Shown here in pieces: positions 1 through 5,738 of a stretch of DNA of 5,738 nt (within the stretch, counting starts at the first letter, position 1; every line of letters begins with the position of its first letter). The notes under the pieces are model-generated. The model was not told the DNA's origin, did no database searches, and saw only the letters and a program-made list of their open reading frames with translations. A program made the position numbers and the translations under genes. Source of the DNA: a virus; the IMG/VR virus record IMGVR_UViG_3300023545_000089, positions 1-5,738 of that record, one strand, 5' to 3'.

Positions 1-55
1 GCGGATGCTCAGCGGCAACTGGTTAAACTGTTCCCGCTTCTCGTTCATCATGTTC
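1..55. repeat. Terminal direct repeat: bases 1-55 are identical to 5684-5738. It is the overlap left when a circular 5683-nt genome was linearised, not a biological repeat.
   Basis: The first 55 nt (gcggatgctcagcggcaactggttaaactgttcccgcttctcgttcatcatgttc) recur exactly at the window end. A minus-strand ORF reads continuously across the junction. Confidence 0.95.
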
Positions 56-345
56 ATGTATTCGGTGTAGGTCTGCGGCAGCTTGCTTGTGTCGATGTAC
101 CAGCCCGGCTTTGCCAGCACACTTTCGTCGCCGGCAGCGTATCGGCTCAGAATTGCCATGACGTCGCATTCGTCTTTATAGCTCTGGATTTTTTCGTATG
201 TGTCCACTTCGCCGACCTTTTCCAGATACGGCTGCCCTCGGTCGTCGTATCGCTCCTTGTACTCCGGCTCAAACCGGTTGCCCGGGTTGTTCGGCAGCGC
301 CAGTGGTTTTTTGTCCTCGTAGGGTTTAAAGATTCTTACTCCCAT
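1..345 (-). CDS. N-terminal segment of the same 168-aa VP3-like protein (MGVRIFKPYEDKKPLALPNNPGNRFEPEYKERYDDRGQPYLEKVGEVDTYEKIQSYKDECDVMAILSRYAAGDESVLAKPGWYIDTSKLPQTYTEYMNMMNEKREQFNQLPLSIR...). The start is ATG at 345..343. Positions 1-55 duplicate 5684-5738.
   Basis: Hand translation of the minus strand in the frame of the 5522..5734 ORF. The in-frame stop lies upstream at 363..361, and this is the first ATG after it. An RBS AAGGAG sits 7 nt upstream (revcomp of 353-358). The start overlaps the 3' end of the 87-aa ORF by 20 nt in another frame. Confidence 0.6.
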   Translation of the reverse strand, partial: MGVRIFKPYEDKKPLALPNNPGNRFEPEYKERYDDRGQPYLEKVGEVDTYEKIQSYKDECDVMAILSRYAAGDESVLAKPGWYIDTSKLPQTYTEYMNMMNEKREQFNQLPLSIR

Positions 346-589
346 TGAGCTGCTCCTTTTTCATGAGTTCGATGTTGTACATGAGCATTGGCAGTGCCAG
401 CGGCTTGATCTGGCCGCTTTCGTTGTCGTACTTGCCCAGAAGATAGACTCGCTTATCCTCGCAGTCGGCTTTCTCCATCTCCTGTGCCATCCATTTGAAG
501 GTCCGATCGGCTACTTTTTTGTTGACCACGATCAGATTGCCGAAGATGCCAGACAGTTCGTCTTTTACTGCGTATACCTGAAATTCCAT
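326..589 (-). CDS. 87-aa hypothetical protein. It may be the VP5/C-like small non-structural protein of gokushoviruses, but that is not verified.
   Basis: Track ORF. ATG at 589..587 is preceded by AAGGAG with a 8-nt spacer (TAAAGGAGAATCATCATG), and this RBS overlaps the TAA stop of the upstream 39-aa ORF. It is tightly packed in an operon with neighbouring genes. Confidence 0.6.
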   Translation of the reverse strand: MEFQVYAVKDELSGIFGNLIVVNKKVADRTFKWMAQEMEKADCEDKRVYLLGKYDNESGQIKPLALPMLMYNIELMKKEQLNGSKNL

Positions 590-601
590 GATGATTCTCC
601 T

Positions 602-721
602 TTATAAACGGATGCCGCCGCGCGACGGCTTCGGATTGACGTTGATTTTTTTCGTCTTCTTTGCGGTATTGGTGAAGACTCTCTTATCCTTTTTCGGATT
701 GACCGGCATACGATGTGCCAT
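602..721 (-). CDS. 39-aa highly basic peptide MAHRMPVNPKKDKRVFTNTAKKTKKINVNPKPSRGGIRL. It is a candidate J-like/ORF8-like DNA-binding packaging protein.
   Basis: Absent from the ORF track because it is below the length cut-off. Found by hand: ATG 721..719 has a strong RBS AAGGAGG 7 nt upstream, which overlaps the TAA stop of the preceding 34-aa ORF. Its own stop TAA (604..602) is embedded in the RBS of the 87-aa ORF. It has 13 K/R in 39 aa, like the phiX174 J protein and the chlamydiaphage ORF8. Confidence 0.45.
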   Translation of the reverse strand: MAHRMPVNPKKDKRVFTNTAKKTKKINVNPKPSRGGIRL

Positions 722-722
722 A

Positions 723-827
723 TTACTCCTCCTTATCCAGACCCATGGCGTGGTAAATCTTGTCTAACATCGCAAGGATTTTCCTCAGTTGATTAAAAAT
801 CCCGCGGATGTCTTTCAAAGTAATCAT
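723..827 (-). CDS. 34-aa hypothetical peptide MITLKDIRGIFNQLRKILAMLDKIYHAMGLDKEE, predicted to be an amphipathic helix.
   Basis: Untracked. ATG 827..825 is preceded by AAAGGAGGTG with a 6-nt spacer. Its stop TAA (725..723) overlaps the RBS of the 39-aa ORF (GATAAGGAGGAGTAATATG). It is the first gene after the 828-990 intergenic region. Confidence 0.35.
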   Translation of the reverse strand: MITLKDIRGIFNQLRKILAMLDKIYHAMGLDKEE

Positions 828-939
828 GGCAACACCTCCTTTCTTTTCATATTTGTGTGCAAATAGAAGGTTTCTGACAGTGGAGGCAGAGCATTCCTCC
901 TTTACATTTCGCTGCCAGTCCCCTCATGTCAATTTTACC

Positions 940-987
940 AAAAAAAAAAAAAACGCAAGGTCAACTTTCGTCAATCTCACGTTTTTT
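940..987 (-). terminator. Candidate rho-independent terminator downstream of the 52-aa ORF, with a homopolymer of 14 A (plus strand) = U14 on the sense RNA.
   Basis: Sense RNA: AAAAAACGUGAG-[AUUGACGAAAGUUGAC]-CUUGCGUUUUUUUUUUUUUU. The 6-bp core stem has two G.U wobbles and is extendable by A6/U6, with a 16-nt loop and a U14 tail. On the plus strand the wobbles become C.A mismatches, so the structure is stable only in the transcript of the gene strand. Confidence 0.35.
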
Positions 988-990
988 GGT

Positions 991-1149
991 TTATCTTTCG
1001 TATTCTTTGAGTTTTTCACAGATTGCGTTTGTCCATTCGTCATCCATGTTGTACTCTTCTTTTATCTGCTCTCGGTCTTCGCTTCTCCATCCACCGTCGT
1101 ATAGTGCTGCTGCGCAGTTTTCAACTTCTTCTTCATAGTAGCTTTTCAT
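991..1149 (-). CDS. 52-aa very acidic hypothetical protein MKSYYEEEVENCAAALYDGGWRSEDREQIKEEYNMDDEWTNAICEKLKEYER, with 15 D/E against 7 K/R.
   Basis: Untracked. ATG 1149..1147 is preceded by AGGAGG with a 6-nt spacer and sits directly downstream of promoter P1. It is followed by the hairpin/U14 terminator. The plus-strand track ORFs 808..1104 and 926..1138 are antisense to it and lack an RBS. Confidence 0.45.
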   Translation of the reverse strand: MKSYYEEEVENCAAALYDGGWRSEDREQIKEEYNMDDEWTNAICEKLKEYER

Positions 1150-1190
1150 GGTGTGCCTCCTAGTTTGTGGTGTGCTCTTCTTACACCTTT

Positions 1191-1219
1191 ATTATACACC
1201 TAAAACATACATTTGTCAA
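1191..1219 (-). promoter_or_regulatory. Sigma70-like promoter P1: TTGACA (revcomp of 1214-1219), a 17-nt spacer, then TATAAT (revcomp of 1191-1196). It drives the 52-aa ORF.
   Basis: Both hexamers match consensus perfectly with the optimal 17-nt spacing. It is followed by a 5'UTR and RBS cassette that is nearly identical to the one downstream of P2. Confidence 0.5.
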
Positions 1220-1269
1220 GCAGAACTTTGCCTAGATGGCCGTCCGGTCGGCGCTGGTGCGCCGAATGA

Positions 1270-1307
1270 AAAGGACGGCGTAGCTTTCCGTGACTACGTC
1301 GTCCTTT
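1270..1307 (-). terminator. Candidate intrinsic terminator for the P2-RHH-VP4 transcript, 29 nt after the VP4 stop.
   Basis: Sense RNA: AAAGGACGACGUAG-UCACGGAAAG-CUACGCCGUCCUUU-UCAUUC. The stem is 14 bp with one internal mismatch, G+C rich, and is followed by a U-rich tail (UUUUCAUU). A G+C-rich patch with small hairpins (ggcgctggtgcgcc, 1250-1263) separates it from P1. Confidence 0.4.
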
Positions 1308-1335
1308 CCTTTATTGGCCGTCTCCCCCTGGCCAC

Positions 1336-2514
1336 TTATATTTCATCTCTTCTTAATTTGGAGAACTTTTCTTGATTTTTCGCGTCGATGTTGTTATAAT
1401 GTTCTTGCAGACTATAGCCGTGTTGTGCGAGCTGAGCGAATAGAGCGTCGTTGGCGATTTTCCGCCGCTTTCTCTTTATTTGTTTCAGTTCGTCCGACTC
1501 GGCTTTTATTATTAGAGCTTCGTAATCCTTTTCTGTTTCGGCGTTTAGTGGTTCGCTGTTGCTGTGTTCAAGATCAAAGAGCTTGTCGAAGTATGCTGGC
1601 GGTTTACATTTTTTTCCCTTACTCAGCTGGATACTGTCTTTTTGGTATATCTCATCTTTATGGTCTTCGTAGTATCTCCAGCCGATTGATGGTTTTGTGC
1701 TGATTCTGCTATCTTCTTCCTCGATACACATATCGAGGAATTTTTCTTTTGCTTCGCCATATGCTTTCTTGGAACAGTATGCTGCTGTATATGCCATGTC
1801 GTTCCATTCTGCTACTCCGATGATTACGAAGCCTTTTCCCCATATCTGGTTGAGCCATGCACAGGTGTAGTATACTCTGCCTTTCTGTTTTTTATATATC
1901 TTCAGTTCTTTCGGGTCTATGTATAAGCTGTATACGATCGCGTGATAATGCGGTCTGTGCGTTTTCGTGCCGTATTCTCCACCAGCGTAGTACATGAGTT
2001 TATTTTTCATGCCTACTTTTTCATCATAGACTTGGTACATTCTTTCGTGATACTCTGTCCACCTTCTCAGCCTTTTCCAGAATGCCGTTAAATCATCATA
2101 GTCTAGTGTCAGGTTCGTTGTATACTCTCCGCTTGGAGCTTTCAGCACTCCGTTTTTGTCGATGCCTTTTCCTCTTTCGATGTTGATTGGAACGTGCTCG
2201 TTGTCGTATGTCAACGTCAGGAACCATGCCTGATCGTGATACGGCAGTTCCATCTCCATTCTGTTTGCCCAGCTCTTCCGTCGGTCCAGTATGCACCCTT
2301 GGCAGTGCTTACAAGGTAAAATCACGATTTCGCCGGTTTTGATCTTTGCTTTGATTTCTCGCTCTCTTCTGCGCTGCGTTGCTATGTCGTCAGCTGGTTC
2401 ACTGTTTGGCTTGTTCGACATTCCGTATTTGATATAACGCTCTAGTGAGCTGAAAAAATCGTCTCCGTTTTTCTTCGCTCCGAAGATCCTAATGTTGGGT
2501 CTGCCACATGGCAT
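1336..2514 (-). CDS. Replication initiation protein VP4 (HUH rolling-circle endonuclease), 392 aa.
   Basis: Track ORF. It carries RCR motif I FLTLTYD, motif II HYHAIVY (HUH) and a tyrosine-bearing motif III region MAYTAAYCSKKAYGE. The N-terminal Cys cluster (PCKHCQGC) is typical of gokushovirus VP4. RBS GGGAGGTG lies 8 nt upstream of ATG 2514. About 100 extra C-terminal residues are K/E-rich and include KRKRRK. Confidence 0.9.
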   Translation of the reverse strand: MPCGRPNIRIFGAKKNGDDFFSSLERYIKYGMSNKPNSEPADDIATQRRREREIKAKIKTGEIVILPCKHCQGCILDRRKSWANRMEMELPYHDQAWFLTLTYDNEHVPINIERGKGIDKNGVLKAPSGEYTTNLTLDYDDLTAFWKRLRRWTEYHERMYQVYDEKVGMKNKLMYYAGGEYGTKTHRPHYHAIVYSLYIDPKELKIYKKQKGRVYYTCAWLNQIWGKGFVIIGVAEWNDMAYTAAYCSKKAYGEAKEKFLDMCIEEEDSRISTKPSIGWRYYEDHKDEIYQKDSIQLSKGKKCKPPAYFDKLFDLEHSNSEPLNAETEKDYEALIIKAESDELKQIKRKRRKIANDALFAQLAQHGYSLQEHYNNIDAKNQEKFSKLRRDEI

Positions 2515-2537
2515 GGATGTTTCACCTCCCGGGGTCG

Positions 2538-2580
2538 CACTGGGGGGAAATGTCCCTCTTGATTACATTTCCCCCCAGTG
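2538..2580. promoter_or_regulatory. Perfect 16-bp inverted repeat (cactggggggaaatgt / acatttccccccagtg) with an 11-nt loop (ccctcttgatt), 7 nt upstream of the VP4 SD. It is a candidate origin (dso-like) hairpin and/or operator and/or translational control element.
   Basis: Read directly: the arms 2538-2553 and 2565-2580 are exact reverse complements. It lies in the 148-nt spacer between the RHH ORF and VP4. This spacer also contains an AT-rich imperfect hairpin (acaaaaat 2583-2590 / atttttgt 2618-2625). Confidence 0.6.
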
Positions 2581-2662
2581 ACACAAAAATGCGTCTGACG
2601 GTTACTGTCGGGCCTGTATTTTTGTTGCATTCAGTTTGCACGGCGAAGCCGTCAAACGGCTC

Positions 2663-2854
2663 CTAGTTTATGTCTGTTCCGGTCGAGATTGCAATTCTTG
2701 CTTTCTTTCCGTAAGCGTTGATTGCGTCTCTGATACAGTCGGAGTCATTCATTTTGATTTTGTTTATTCTGTTGTAAGTCTGGATTGATTCCAGAGATTT
2801 AAGTTCTTGTTCGGTCAAGTTGATGTTGAAGCGTTTTGCGATTTGGCTCTTCAT
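2663..2854 (-). CDS. 63-aa ribbon-helix-helix (CopG/Arc/MetJ-like) DNA-binding protein candidate MKSQIAKRFNINLTEQELKSLESIQTYNRINKIKMNDSDCIRDAINAYGKKARIAISTGTDIN.
   Basis: Internal start of track ORF 2663..2992: ATG 2854..2852 has a perfect AGGAGG 6 nt upstream and promoter P2 just before it. The longer 109-aa version would overlap VP2 and lacks an RBS. KRFNINLTEQELKSLE matches the RHH beta-strand plus helix A pattern of CopG (KRLTITLSESVLENLE), and SDCIRDAINAY resembles helix B (SAMISVALENY). Confidence 0.55.
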   Translation of the reverse strand: MKSQIAKRFNINLTEQELKSLESIQTYNRINKIKMNDSDCIRDAINAYGKKARIAISTGTDIN

Positions 2855-2893
2855 GGTTAGCCTCCTAGCTAAGTGTGTGATTGGTACACTCAT

Positions 2894-2922
2894 AATATAC
2901 ACCTCTTTTCTCCACTTGTCAA
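2894..2922 (-). promoter_or_regulatory. Sigma70-like promoter P2: TTGACA (revcomp of 2917-2922), a 17-nt spacer, then TATATT (revcomp of 2894-2899). It drives the RHH ORF and probably VP4.
   Basis: The -35 hexamer begins 5 nt after the VP2 stop. The promoter, 5'UTR and RBS are a paralogous copy of the P1 cassette: ...aggtgTATAtT...gtgta...cacac..ctAGGAGGc..accATGaagagc. Both ORFs start with MKS. Confidence 0.5.
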
Positions 2923-2927
2923 CTACT

Positions 2928-3866
2928 TTATGGCAACATTGGAAGACCCGGTAGTAAGCCGAATTGGCCTTTTGCTGCAAGGCCTGCGTCAAGTCGCCCT
3001 TCGTTCTTAAACTCGTGGCCTTTGGTTTCTTGCTCCTGCTGCGTGGTGCTGTCTATCCGCTCGCCTAGCTGGCCCACGGTTTTTGCGCTGCTGCTTACGG
3101 TTTGCTGTTGCATCTGTTCGAGGTGCTCGGCTGTCCAGTAGTCAGAACTTTGTTTCGCGTTGTTGATGGCCGTCTGAAAGTTCTGCACGATCTGTGCGGT
3201 GTTGTTGCCGTAGTCATACATTGCCTGCATGGTCGCGTTTTTGGCTGCTGGTGCTGCCAGAGCCTGAGCGTGTGCGAAGGTCTGACCGCCACCGAGACTT
3301 CCATATCCTCCTGATGGCGTCTGCGCCCCATAGCCGTTATAGGCTGCTAAGATAGGATTCAATCCCGCTGCTTTAAGGTCTGCCACGCCTCTTTGATAGC
3401 TCGTGTTGGCCATTCGCTCTTGCCAGTCTCTTTGAGCTTTGGCCTCAGCTGAGTTATACCGCATTGCGCTTGTTTGGCTTGCTGCGCTCATTGCATTGGA
3501 TGCTAGAGCGTTTCCCATGTTGAGAAGATTGCCCATCATCCATGTACCGGTCTGCAAGTCGTTGGCTGTTTTTGCGTTCTCTGCGTTGAAGTTCGCTGCG
3601 ATTTGACCATTGTTGCCGGTCGGCGTTCCGAGTGCTGTTGCTAGCAGATTTCCCAGTGCGCTTGTGTTGCCGGTTTGGACGCTTCCACCTGCGCTTGTAG
3701 TGTCCTGTGCGGTGCTTCCCATGGTCGTCCCGCTCTGGATAGTCGAGTTCATACTACCCTGCGTTTTGGCGCTGCTGGTGCTTCCTTTAATTGCGCTGTA
3801 GAGTCCATACAGTGTGTTTGCCAGAGTTAGGCCGCCTTTGACAAGGCCCATTAGCCCGATTGCCAT
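2928..3866 (-). CDS. Minor capsid / DNA pilot protein VP2, 312 aa.
   Basis: Track ORF. It has a hydrophobic N-terminus, a long low-complexity G/A/S/T/N/Q region, and the conserved gokushovirus VP2 motif ...QERMANTSYQRGVADLKAAGLNPILAAY. RBS AAGGAGGTGG overlaps the VP1 stop TAA (3879-3881), and the ATG is at 3866. Confidence 0.8.
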   Translation of the reverse strand: MAIGLMGLVKGGLTLANTLYGLYSAIKGSTSSAKTQGSMNSTIQSGTTMGSTAQDTTSAGGSVQTGNTSALGNLLATALGTPTGNNGQIAANFNAENAKTANDLQTGTWMMGNLLNMGNALASNAMSAASQTSAMRYNSAEAKAQRDWQERMANTSYQRGVADLKAAGLNPILAAYNGYGAQTPSGGYGSLGGGQTFAHAQALAAPAAKNATMQAMYDYGNNTAQIVQNFQTAINNAKQSSDYWTAEHLEQMQQQTVSSSAKTVGQLGERIDSTTQQEQETKGHEFKNEGRLDAGLAAKGQFGLLPGLPMLP

Positions 3867-3878
3867 TGTTCCACCTCC

Positions 3879-5525
3879 TTAGATGGTATCAAGGCCCGGG
3901 ATGCTGTAGATAGGCATTGCCCTTGTCCATGTCTGGTCGAAGTAGAAGTTGCAGATGAATTGGCGGCTGTTTTCGCTCTGGACTGCGATCGTGCGGTCGA
4001 TGTTCTCTGTGCCCTCTTTAATCCAGTCGTTCGAGAGAGTCGGCAGTTTCGTGTATTTGTCGGCATAGTGCCAAGCATCCAGAGTCTGGGCGTAGGTGCT
4101 GCGCATTTCGCCTGTGATCATGTTTGTCCGGTATCGGTAGTCTGCCCAAGCTTCCTGATAGCCGAATACTTCTTCGTCCTGTTCGTTGCCCTGTGCGTAG
4201 ATTTCCTGATTAAGCACTGCTTGCTCACCGAGGTTTGCAAGCATCGGGTCATAGTAGGAAAAGCGCGTGCTGCGTGTCCACAGTCGAGAAAGCCCCTGCT
4301 GGTAGCTGTGATCAACTCGTACTGCTGCCAGACCGATGATAAAACCATGTTCCGTTGCGCTGTACGTTGCCATGTTCCGGCTCATCGTGGTCATGGAGAA
4401 TGCTGCAGTGTTGCCCTGCGGACTCGTCGAGTCCGTGCTGGATGTCTGAATGACCTGATTGATGTTGATAGGCAGTCTGTAGCCGCCGATGTATTCCGAC
4501 CGGTCAAGTCGTGCATCCGGACTCGTTACGCCCCAAGCACCCTGTAAGATTTCCTTGTACCGTGTGCCGGTGCGTGCATCTCTTTCCATGATGTGCTGCA
4601 CTGCGATAGCTTGTCGGAGTTCGTTTATGGTTGCTGCGGTTGCATTTGAGAGGTCTGCTCCTAAGTTTATTCCGCCTGTTGCGCCGCTGCTGGTGGTCGT
4701 CATTGCCAGCCCTTTGTCTCTATATGGGCCGTCTCCTATATCCCAGTAAGGCGCAAAGAATGGATTTTCTTCTATTCCTACTTCCGTGGCGATGGCTTTC
4801 ATCTTGTCGGTTTTTGTCGTGACGTCTCCAGTTGACGGATTGTAAAATCCGATTGGTACGCCTCCGGTCATCGGCAGCGTCACGGCCTCGCCTTTCTGAG
4901 GATTCGGCAGGCAGCTTGTGAAGTAGTCCTTGTACTTACATACTTTGAGCGGCAGGCCTCCGGCTTCGGCGTCGGTGAGTGCTGTTCCTGCGTTGCTTCC
5001 TGCGGTCGTGGCGTCCGTCTTGCTCATCGTGACAGGCTGCTGTAAATTTTCGTCTCGAAACCATTCGTTCCAGATTTTGGCATATGCCCGGAAAGGCAGG
5101 CTGTTTACCTGTAGGTTTTCTACTCCGGTCGGAATGCCGAAGTAGTCCGCCAGCGTGCCAACTTTCCAGCCGCCAGTTGGTGCGGTCGTTTTCGGAGTCG
5201 TGTACTCTACTTTTTCAGCCCAGAAGGTGCTGTCGTTCTGACCCATGAGGTTTTCGAAATGCTCCCATAGCAGCCGCGATGGTACGAAGAAGAAGTAAAA
5301 GTCACAGTAACAGTTATCCATGACAGGATACAGCGGAGTGCTCATGCGCATAAGTGCATTGAGATCGATCTTTGCCGTGTCTGCCGGTAGAACTTCGTCA
5401 CAGTAGATCGGAATCAGATCGCCTTCGTTCATGGTCGTCAGCAGGCTATAATCCCGTTTGAATCTTGCACGTGGCACATTTGCATGAGGCACTTGGCTGT
5501 AGTGCTGTTCGGCGTTTCGGTTCAT
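3879..5525 (-). CDS. Major capsid protein VP1 (F-like), 548 aa.
   Basis: Track ORF. Its size and N-terminal region (…RARFKRDYSLLTTMNEGDLIPIYCDEVLPADT…PVMDNCYCDFYFFFVPSRLLWEHFENLMG) are characteristic of gokushovirus VP1. Its start is coupled (ATGA) to the upstream 168-aa ORF. Confidence 0.9.
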   Translation of the reverse strand: MNRNAEQHYSQVPHANVPRARFKRDYSLLTTMNEGDLIPIYCDEVLPADTAKIDLNALMRMSTPLYPVMDNCYCDFYFFFVPSRLLWEHFENLMGQNDSTFWAEKVEYTTPKTTAPTGGWKVGTLADYFGIPTGVENLQVNSLPFRAYAKIWNEWFRDENLQQPVTMSKTDATTAGSNAGTALTDAEAGGLPLKVCKYKDYFTSCLPNPQKGEAVTLPMTGGVPIGFYNPSTGDVTTKTDKMKAIATEVGIEENPFFAPYWDIGDGPYRDKGLAMTTTSSGATGGINLGADLSNATAATINELRQAIAVQHIMERDARTGTRYKEILQGAWGVTSPDARLDRSEYIGGYRLPININQVIQTSSTDSTSPQGNTAAFSMTTMSRNMATYSATEHGFIIGLAAVRVDHSYQQGLSRLWTRSTRFSYYDPMLANLGEQAVLNQEIYAQGNEQDEEVFGYQEAWADYRYRTNMITGEMRSTYAQTLDAWHYADKYTKLPTLSNDWIKEGTENIDRTIAVQSENSRQFICNFYFDQTWTRAMPIYSIPGLDTI

Positions 5526-5738
5526 TCCTTATTTTCTCCTTTCTGTACAGTTTTTTCAGCTGTAGCATCGACCTTCTCTTGTGTCTTTTGTGTATTCTGC
5601 TGAATTTTGATGCCCATTTTGTCGAGCCACTCTTTTTCACCGGCTGTTGCCATCCAGTTTTCGAAGTTCATGCCGAATGCTTGGCGGATGCTCAGCGGCA
5701 ACTGGTTAAACTGTTCCCGCTTCTCGTTCATCATGTTC
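5522..5738 (-). CDS. C-terminal segment of a 168-aa VP3-like (internal scaffolding candidate) protein. The ORF runs off the window end and continues at 1..345 because the genome is circular. Its stop TGA (5522-5524) overlaps the VP1 ATG (5525-5523) as ATGA.
   Basis: Track ORF 5522..5734. The two ATGs at the window edge are internal Mets: in the same frame the ORF extends through the repeat to an upstream ATG at 345..343. The stop/start overlap with VP1 indicates translational coupling. The VP3 identity rests only on size and position. Confidence 0.6.
   Translation of the reverse strand, partial: NMMNEKREQFNQLPLSIRQAFGMNFENWMATAGEKEWLDKMGIKIQQNTQKTQEKVDATAEKTVQKGENKE

Follow-up and report, generated by a model that had tools for sequence, protein, structure and literature searches.

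A conserved intergenic hairpin as the probable rolling-circle origin of gokushoviruses, inverted relative to the genes in a gut clade

The stretch of DNA analysed here, the 5,738 nucleotides of the IMG/VR virus record IMGVR_UViG_3300023545_000089 (positions 1 to 5,738; referred to below as the window), represents all or nearly all of a gokushovirus (Microviridae) genome, in which all genes lie on the – strand. A perfect hairpin at 2538 to 2580, next to the gene for the replication initiator (Rep) VP4, is probably the viral-strand origin of rolling-circle replication, a site that VP4 would bind and nick and that would work on the + strand of the window. The element is best read as the gokushovirus counterpart of the double-strand origins of the phiX174 and pC194 type, with a nick site in the loop and a bind box, an assignment made because its geometry is homologous with that of phiX174; the arrangement also fits the general scheme for HUH initiators (PMC5714925). 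In the clade of gut viruses to which the window belongs the element is inverted relative to the genes, and therefore the displaced, packaged strand would be antisense to them. It is fairly likely that these gokushoviruses displace and encapsidate the strand complementary to their mRNAs and are thus negative-sense microviruses. The kind of element is known, and it is the polarity that appears to be new: no literature was found on a gokushovirus origin or on negative-sense microviruses, in a search that did not cover the original SpV4 and Chp2 papers, which may note the hairpin. The features on which the argument depends are the following.

2538 to 2580, + strand (antisense to all genes): putative origin hairpin, with arms at 2538 to 2553 and 2565 to 2580 and the loop CCCTCTTGATT at 2554 to 2564.
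2558 to 2563, + strand: CTTGAT core, in which VP4 is predicted, from the phiX174 sequence CAACTTG^ATA, to nick between G2561 and A2562.
2580 to 2590, + strand: GACAC box (G2580 to C2584) and conserved A-rich flank, 18 nt past the predicted nick G, a putative Rep "bind" element.
1336 to 2514, – strand: VP4, the rolling-circle Rep and an HUH endonuclease, for which the origin is the expected substrate (Pfam PF23343 REP_ORF2-G2P, E = 1.2e-13).
2523 to 2530, – strand: Shine-Dalgarno (SD) sequence of VP4, GGGAGGTG, which on the gene strand follows the hairpin after 7 nt.

The inverted repeat is made of a 5' arm CACTGGGGGGAAATGT and a 3' arm ACATTTCCCCCCAGTG, which pair perfectly over 16 bp and enclose an 11-nt loop. 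A first-pass annotation of the window, made from the letters alone, had described such a stem as statistically unexpected, and rightly so, as analytically 9.5e-6 perfect stems of 16 bp or more, with loops of 3 to 20 nt, are expected in the window, and the longest perfect stem in 200 first-order Markov simulations measured 6 to 12 bp. Its further description as G/C-rich is only moderately true (G or C at 9 of the 16 bases of each arm). Folded as single-stranded DNA (ssDNA), a check that the same annotation had proposed, the hairpin is stable on either strand, at about -18.6 kcal/mol (-18.6 and -18.7 kcal/mol, z = -5.8 and -5.5, respectively), and none of 200 shuffles was as stable. On the gene strand, the end of the hairpin is followed by 7 nt (CGACCCC), by GGGAGGTG, by a further 8 nt and by the VP4 ATG at 2514, which bears out the 7-nt distance from the VP4 SD reported earlier.

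A hairpin was found at the same place in all the relatives that were fetched, namely four GenBank genomes and about 45 IMG/VR contigs with VP4 proteins 47–97% identical. Their stems differ in sequence (CACTGGGGGGAAATGT, CAGTGGGCCCCWATAAC, CACCTAGCCCCAATAAC, CAGTAAGCCCCTATAAC and CAACTGGCCCATATAC, among others), and despite these differences the loop (RTCAAGARG on the gene strand) and the 5' flank TTGTGTCA are kept. When 45 elements are aligned, the C, T and G of CTTG are invariant and its second T is nearly so, the T, G, A and A of TGACAC are likewise invariant, and the other positions of both motifs are at least 90% conserved. The stem covaries strongly, a property that had been proposed as a check in related genomes: paired bases occupy 82% of the cells of the 45-sequence alignment vs 58% in shuffles, 14 of the 16 stem pairs have changed on both sides, and the covariation score reaches 0.547, compared with 0.18 in shuffles (none of 500 attains the observed value) and 0.11–0.17 in slid controls. 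Moreover, in all 78 distinct elements GACAC follows the G of CTTG by 17 or 18 nt, despite stems that range from 9 to 20 bp. As a separate observation, the element of L005 / L011 (IMGVR_UViG_3300045988_020022) has C8 instead of C6 in its 3' arm, and hence unequal arms, which reflects either a homopolymer that varies in length in a close relative or an artefact of sequencing.

The element extends well beyond the window's relatives. An alignment-based survey with VP1, which retrieved 80 whole gokushovirus genomes, all oriented with VP1 on the + strand, showed that nearly all genomes outside the clade carry a hairpin on the gene strand, with the loop (T)CTACTTGAT or CCTCTTGAT followed by TGACACC (47 distinct gene-strand elements, and 9 genomes with weaker stems). 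A search with the flank pattern added four distant microvirus contigs (L053, L134, L155 and L163) that have the element on the opposite strand relative to the genes, compared with the window. The hairpin of the window represents, for its clade, an element that about 60 other gokushoviruses also possess, Chp2 and SpV4 included. In Chp2 it occupies 2904 to 2941, between VP3 and ORF8, with the loop TCTACTTGAT; SpV4 has a looser variant at 512 to 544, with the loop ATTACTTGTTATA followed by GACGAC, not GACAC, 20 nt past the G. The element most often occupies the intergenic space that follows VP3 or VP2 and precedes VP4; in L155, L192, L202, L214, L218, L242 and L252 it lies upstream of VP1, so that its position is not bound to the ribosome-binding site of VP4. 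No paper was found that gives a function to the conserved intergenic hairpin of gokushoviruses.

Some of the surveyed contigs are peculiar in themselves. L208, a gokushovirus contig of 6.3 kb, has two origin hairpins, at 289 to 323 and 4541 to 4571, about 4.25 kb apart, and could represent a partial duplication, a concatemer or a genuine two-origin genome. In L134 (IMGVR_UViG_3300032731_000082, 7.2 kb), in which the origin element is in sense orientation directly upstream of VP4, VP1 is split by two transposase-like open reading frames (ORFs) of 114 and 300 aa, IS3-like by eye. Finally, the linear contig L180 breaks within the origin hairpin, and the terminal overlap of L237 (positions 164 and 4374) includes the origin; assemblies seem prone to breakage at the origin palindrome.

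Among the characterised systems, the closest parallel is drawn with phiX174, whose annotated origin reads CAACTTG^ATATTAATAACACTATA-GACCAC, with the rep_origin placed at the A after CAACTTG. The two origins have in common the core CTTG^AT and a downstream box (GACCAC 17 nt past the nick G in phiX174, GACAC at 17–18 nt here), and the cognate Rep of phiX174 is, like VP4, a superfamily-I HUH protein with two tyrosines; the translated VP4 of the window shows the phiX-like motifs FLTLTY, HYHAIV and YTAAYCSKK, the last with both Tyr residues. Unlike the window, in which an intergenic 16-bp hairpin stands on the strand antisense to all genes, phiX174 has a 30-bp origin without a long hairpin, inside the Rep gene (gene A) and on the gene-sense strand. 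The plasmid pC194 carries TCTTGATAATA, which we take to be its nick site (core CTTGATA). Origins of the pC194 / pUB110 type resemble the element in placing CTTGATA beside an inverted repeat and in being served by a Rep of the same HUH superfamily, and differ from it in that they belong to plasmids with copy-number control and a separate single-strand origin, from which nothing is packaged. In circular Rep-encoding ssDNA (CRESS-DNA) viruses, the orientation of the genes relative to the origin varies by lineage, and ambisense and negative-sense types are included. These viruses (circoviruses, geminiviruses) also present the nick site in the loop of a conserved hairpin, which is a general principle (PMC5714925), with the differences that the nonanucleotide is another one, the Rep is of superfamily II with one Tyr, iterons are present and the hosts are eukaryotic. 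The other gokushoviruses (Chp2, SpV4 and about 55 metagenomic genomes) share with the window a covarying stem, a loop (C/A)CTTG(A/T)T and a GACAC(C/A) flank, usually upstream of VP4; unlike the window's clade, they have the element on the gene strand, with the flank TGACACCAA instead of TGACACAAA.

The idea of an origin with a nick-site hairpin, put forward in the first-pass annotation, is therefore strongly supported, as the element is conserved and has phiX174-like geometry. The proposed mechanism, for which we infer VP4 binding, the exact cut site, cruciform extrusion and the polarity of the packaged strand, would run as follows. In the supercoiled replicative form the inverted repeat would extrude, or the region would melt, and the loop CCCTCTTG^ATT would be exposed; VP4, placed by the GACAC box 18 nt downstream, would cut after G2561 and keep hold of the 5' end. 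The 3'-OH would then prime the leading strand toward rising window coordinates, head-on to transcription, and, once a round is completed, VP4 would cut again and seal the displaced + strand into a circle to be packaged.

As regards orientation, the 31 distinct elements of the window's clade are all antisense to the genes, as are those of L251 and L252, two more distant relatives from bacterial bins of metagenome-assembled genomes (MAGs) with VP1 proteins 59% and 48% identical, respectively; the element is on the gene strand in all the other sampled genomes. The inversion takes in the loop and the GACAC flank together. A sense-strand copy was sought in the window and none was found. A second, sense-strand origin was considered for the clade in the form of CTTGAA...GGACAC, inside VP3 of some relatives, and was rejected, as it lacks a hairpin and is absent from the window and from most clade members. 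In a neighbour-joining tree of VP1, the window's clade and L251 are monophyletic in 100% of the bootstraps, with the sense-orientation gut viruses L179 to L185 of metagenome 3300045988 as their nearest neighbours, and monophyly of all the antisense genomes receives 58% bootstrap support, which is compatible with one inversion or with two. The proposed negative-sense clade is a deep one and comprises the window, faecal isolates of the KX513873 (pig) and MG945797 (human) type and dozens of IMG/VR genomes, with VP1 identity down to about 48%, and it probably also takes in the prophage of an Oscillospiraceae MAG.

The latter contig, L252 (CAZYSS010000055.1, binned to Oscillospiraceae), has by appearance an integrated gokushovirus at about 4600 to 9100, with A-rich phage genes (VP1 at 5688 to 7364, a VP2-like gene at 7377 to 7937 and VP4 at 8169 to 9083) and with an antisense origin element that precedes VP1 by about 350 nt. 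The genes on either side resemble those of a host, among them an ORF like a tyrosine recombinase (3500 to 2454) and a radA-like gene, and the contig offers a hint of the host of the wider antisense group.

A second line of evidence comes from strand asymmetry. The genomes of ssDNA phages are T-rich and prefer NNT codons, a bias ascribed to the deamination of C to T in the single strand (PMC3278643). At four-fold degenerate sites of the gene strand, the AT skew is +0.46 to +0.62 in the window's clade (T 11–13%); L251 gives +0.35 to +0.43, and the phage genes of L252 give +0.22 to +0.42. Gut genomes of sense orientation, by contrast, have values of -0.60 to -0.78, and of 44 sense genomes 42 are negative. 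Substitutions, counted as polarised singletons among close relatives and read on the gene strand, are likewise asymmetric. In the window's own subgroup there are 60 G>A vs 15 C>T and 19 C>A vs 3 G>T, and in three other subgroups of the clade G>A amounts to 132, 176 and 131 vs 84, 85 and 58 C>T, with 71, 87 and 63 C>A vs 5, 17 and 7 G>T; a sense gut group gives the opposite, 157 C>T vs 51 G>A. At four-fold sites only, the clade shows G>A 86 vs C>T 20 and C>A 52 vs G>T 8, and three sense groups show C>T 57 vs G>A 11 and G>T 30 vs C>A 9. T-richness and the excess of C>T and G>T, the latter being the classic signature of single-strand damage, are thus two independent signals, and in the window's clade as in the sense clades they fall on the strand that bears the element. 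Asymmetry linked to transcription cannot account for the flip, since its sign would not change from one kind of genome to the other. The first-pass annotation had noticed CTTGAT in the + strand loop, confirmed here at 2558 to 2563, and had suspected that the resemblance to phiX174, being antisense to the genes, might be coincidental. This doubt does not hold, in that CTTGAT is the invariant core of the gokushovirus element, and its antisense position is a true, clade-specific inversion, alongside which the strand-asymmetric composition and substitutions flip.

A number of points weigh against the origin reading or against the polarity that follows from it. No experimental mapping of a gokushovirus VP4 nick or origin was found in the literature, and the origin of phiX174, for its part, is no hairpin. 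The association of skew with orientation has exceptions in L216 and L228, which have a sense-strand element and yet more A than T (+0.25), and it rests on one, at most two, evolutionary inversions. A further exception is phiMH2K (L172): its gene strand is A-rich, with a four-fold AT skew of +0.31 and a GC skew of -0.55, and a search of both its strands gave no recognisable CTTGAT...GACAC element. The singleton test was uninformative across deeply diverged VP1 sets, owing to saturation and majority-rule bias, and was replaced by the groups of close relatives described above. The mismatches within stems, read on the + strand, include 6 G.T vs 1 A.C in the clade and stand at 2:3 in the sense genomes; this preference for G.T over A.C is a weak sign, confounded by mutation bias.

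The surroundings of the hairpin, and the rest of the genome, contain the following further features.

5525 to 3879, – strand: VP1 (Pfam Phage_F, E = 1.6e-165).
3866 to 2928, – strand: VP2.
2894 to 2922, – strand: sigma-70-type promoter TTGACA-17-TATATT, with 11 of 12 consensus matches, placed for the small ORF and VP4.
2663 to 2854, – strand: 63-aa ribbon-helix-helix (RHH)-like ORF, co-oriented with VP4 and just upstream of it, clade-specific.
2634 to 2657, unstranded: third hairpin, GTTTG-C-ACGGC GAA GCCGT CAAAC, 6 nt past the small-ORF stop.
2583 to 2625, + strand: second hairpin, with outer AT-rich arms of 8 bp (2583 to 2590 and 2618 to 2625) and an inner stem, in DNA folds.
589 to 326, – strand: VP5.
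5734 to 5522, – strand: C-terminus of VP3.

In GenBank the nearest records come from faecal microviruses of pig and human, which are about 81% identical across 44–63% of the genome. In every member of the clade, the origin and VP4 are preceded by a promoter, a conserved leader, an AGGAGG ribosome-binding site and the 63-aa ORF (MKSQIAKRFNINLT...SDCIRDAINAY in the window), of which 40 distinct alleles were found; TTGACA-17-TATATT itself is conserved in relatives. That the ORF encodes an RHH-like protein is suggested by weak profile matches, namely RHH_1 in 6 of 16 members (best E = 0.008), weak matches to CcdA and NikR, and an hhalign probability of 69% against CopG; its single-sequence AlphaFold2 model (predicted local distance difference test score, pLDDT, of 75) had no significant match in Foldseek. 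The alleles are shuffled with respect to the origin, as in L007 and L008 the origin region is identical to that of the window and the small ORF is 46% identical. The second AT-rich repeat pointed out in the first-pass annotation is indeed present, and it is conserved only in the closest relatives. The hairpin built on it has 18 pairs on the + strand, including G.T pairs that become A.C on the gene strand, so that it folds better on the + strand, where a T-run follows. As for the third hairpin, relatives have a different GC-rich one (GCCGGG..CCCGGC) after the small-ORF stop. The two structures follow immediately 3' of the origin on the + strand and might represent a terminator or a single-strand origin. 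Elsewhere in the genome, a 19-nt inverted repeat (84% complementary) at 1265 to 1312, just past the VP4 stop and with a T-run on the gene strand, is terminator-like, and the approximately 750 nt from the VP4 end to the VP5 start (590 to 1335), with an A11 run at 943 to 953, are without a long ORF and are likewise unannotated in GenBank relatives.

Other functions can be envisaged for the hairpin. It could be a complementary-strand (single-strand) origin, that is, a hairpin of the packaged ssDNA recognised by the host primase, primosome or RNA polymerase, in the manner of the phiX174 n' site, the G4 origin or the single-strand origins of plasmids. The stability of the hairpin in ssDNA, its conserved loop, the compensatory changes of its stem and the two adjoining hairpins would suit such a role, and intergenic hairpins of small microviruses have been tentatively interpreted in this way (PMC9865509). 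It is nevertheless an unlikely one, as the invariant parts match the viral-strand origin of phiX174 and not a primosome or primase site, and the fixed linear spacing regardless of stem length points to a protein that reads sequence, such as Rep; were it true, the functional strand would still be the + strand of the window and the polarity deduced from it would stand. In the 5' untranslated region of the VP4 mRNA, on the other hand, the hairpin might act as an RNA element that masks the ribosome-binding site or affects mRNA stability or processing, and the first-pass annotation had indeed suggested an attenuator that masks the SD. The ribosome-binding site is 7 nt away, pairing between the C6 run and GGGAGG is possible in the window when the 5' arm is kept from its partner, and the hairpin would form in any read-through transcript, at about -38 kcal/mol. 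Opening the 5' arm, however, costs about 20 kcal/mol in the window and 18–28 kcal/mol in L001, L017 and L035, the three relatives to which the constraint could be applied, and in L001 the alternative fold leaves the ribosome-binding site out, the anti-SD complementarity being absent there. When the RNA fold was compared with the SD-pairing alternative, a check proposed by the same annotation, the hairpin dominated, being present in every minimum-energy and centroid fold, with the ribosome-binding site mostly unpaired in the minimum-energy ones. In addition, other genomes have the element upstream of VP1 or elsewhere, and in them it is the complementary loop that the mRNA-sense strand carries; a search of the whole window with the Rfam 15 covariance models gave no match at E ≤ 1. 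With a cost of 18–28 kcal/mol and neither position nor anti-SD pairing conserved, the attenuator is unsupported and a riboregulatory function is very improbable, although the hairpin may incidentally affect the mRNA in a read-through RHH–VP4 transcript.

At the level of double-stranded DNA, the palindrome might be an operator for the RHH-like protein, or for VP4 as an autorepressor, that controls VP4 transcription. RHH proteins bind inverted or tandem repeats, and the succession of promoter, RHH-like gene, hairpin and Rep recalls the Pcr-copG-repB region of pMV158, in which, as is generally known, a strong promoter, a small RHH-like gene and Rep are combined with structured DNA in between. The window departs from this layout in that the origin is located between the two genes, not upstream of the operon, in that there is no sign of an antisense RNA, and in that its RHH assignment is weakly supported. 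Against an operator, about 60 genomes possess the element without a detectable homologue of the RHH-like ORF, the hairpins of L007 and L008 are identical to that of the window even though their RHH-like proteins are only 46% identical, the hairpin is about 330 bp downstream of the promoter, and a freely covarying stem with an invariant loop is unlike the evolution of operators; there is little probability that the hairpin serves this purpose. A terminator or kissing loop of an antisense counter-transcript, comparable to pMV158 RNAII or ColE1 RNAI, or else an intrinsic terminator, is extremely unlikely: the + strand loop does contain a YUNR-like CUUG / UUGA, and the RHH–Rep spacer is where pMV158 encodes RNAII, but no promoter-like site was found on the + strand in 2300 to 3000, neither strand has a U-run after the stem (ACACAAAAA on the + strand, CGACCCC on the – strand), and in sense-orientation genomes the element would fall within the mRNA itself.

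If the reading as a viral-strand origin is correct, the loop CTTG^AT together with the GACAC box provides a concrete and testable origin for gokushoviruses, which are the most abundant ssDNA phages in many viromes, and the motif would be of use for annotation, as a biological start coordinate and for the building of replicons. Strand polarity in the Microviridae, a family defined as positive-sense ssDNA, would seemingly not be fixed, and packaging of the antisense strand would set the window's clade apart from any microvirus described so far. With its NNA instead of NNT codon usage and its mirrored mutation spectrum, the clade would constitute a natural experiment in which the effects of single-strandedness are split from those of transcription, with a bearing on the reading of strand-specific virome data, on host predictions based on codon bias and on classifiers of ssDNA viruses. 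Replication in the clade would proceed head-on to transcription, and this coincides with the gain of a promoter and an RHH-like gene beside the origin, a module that may represent a regulatory adaptation.

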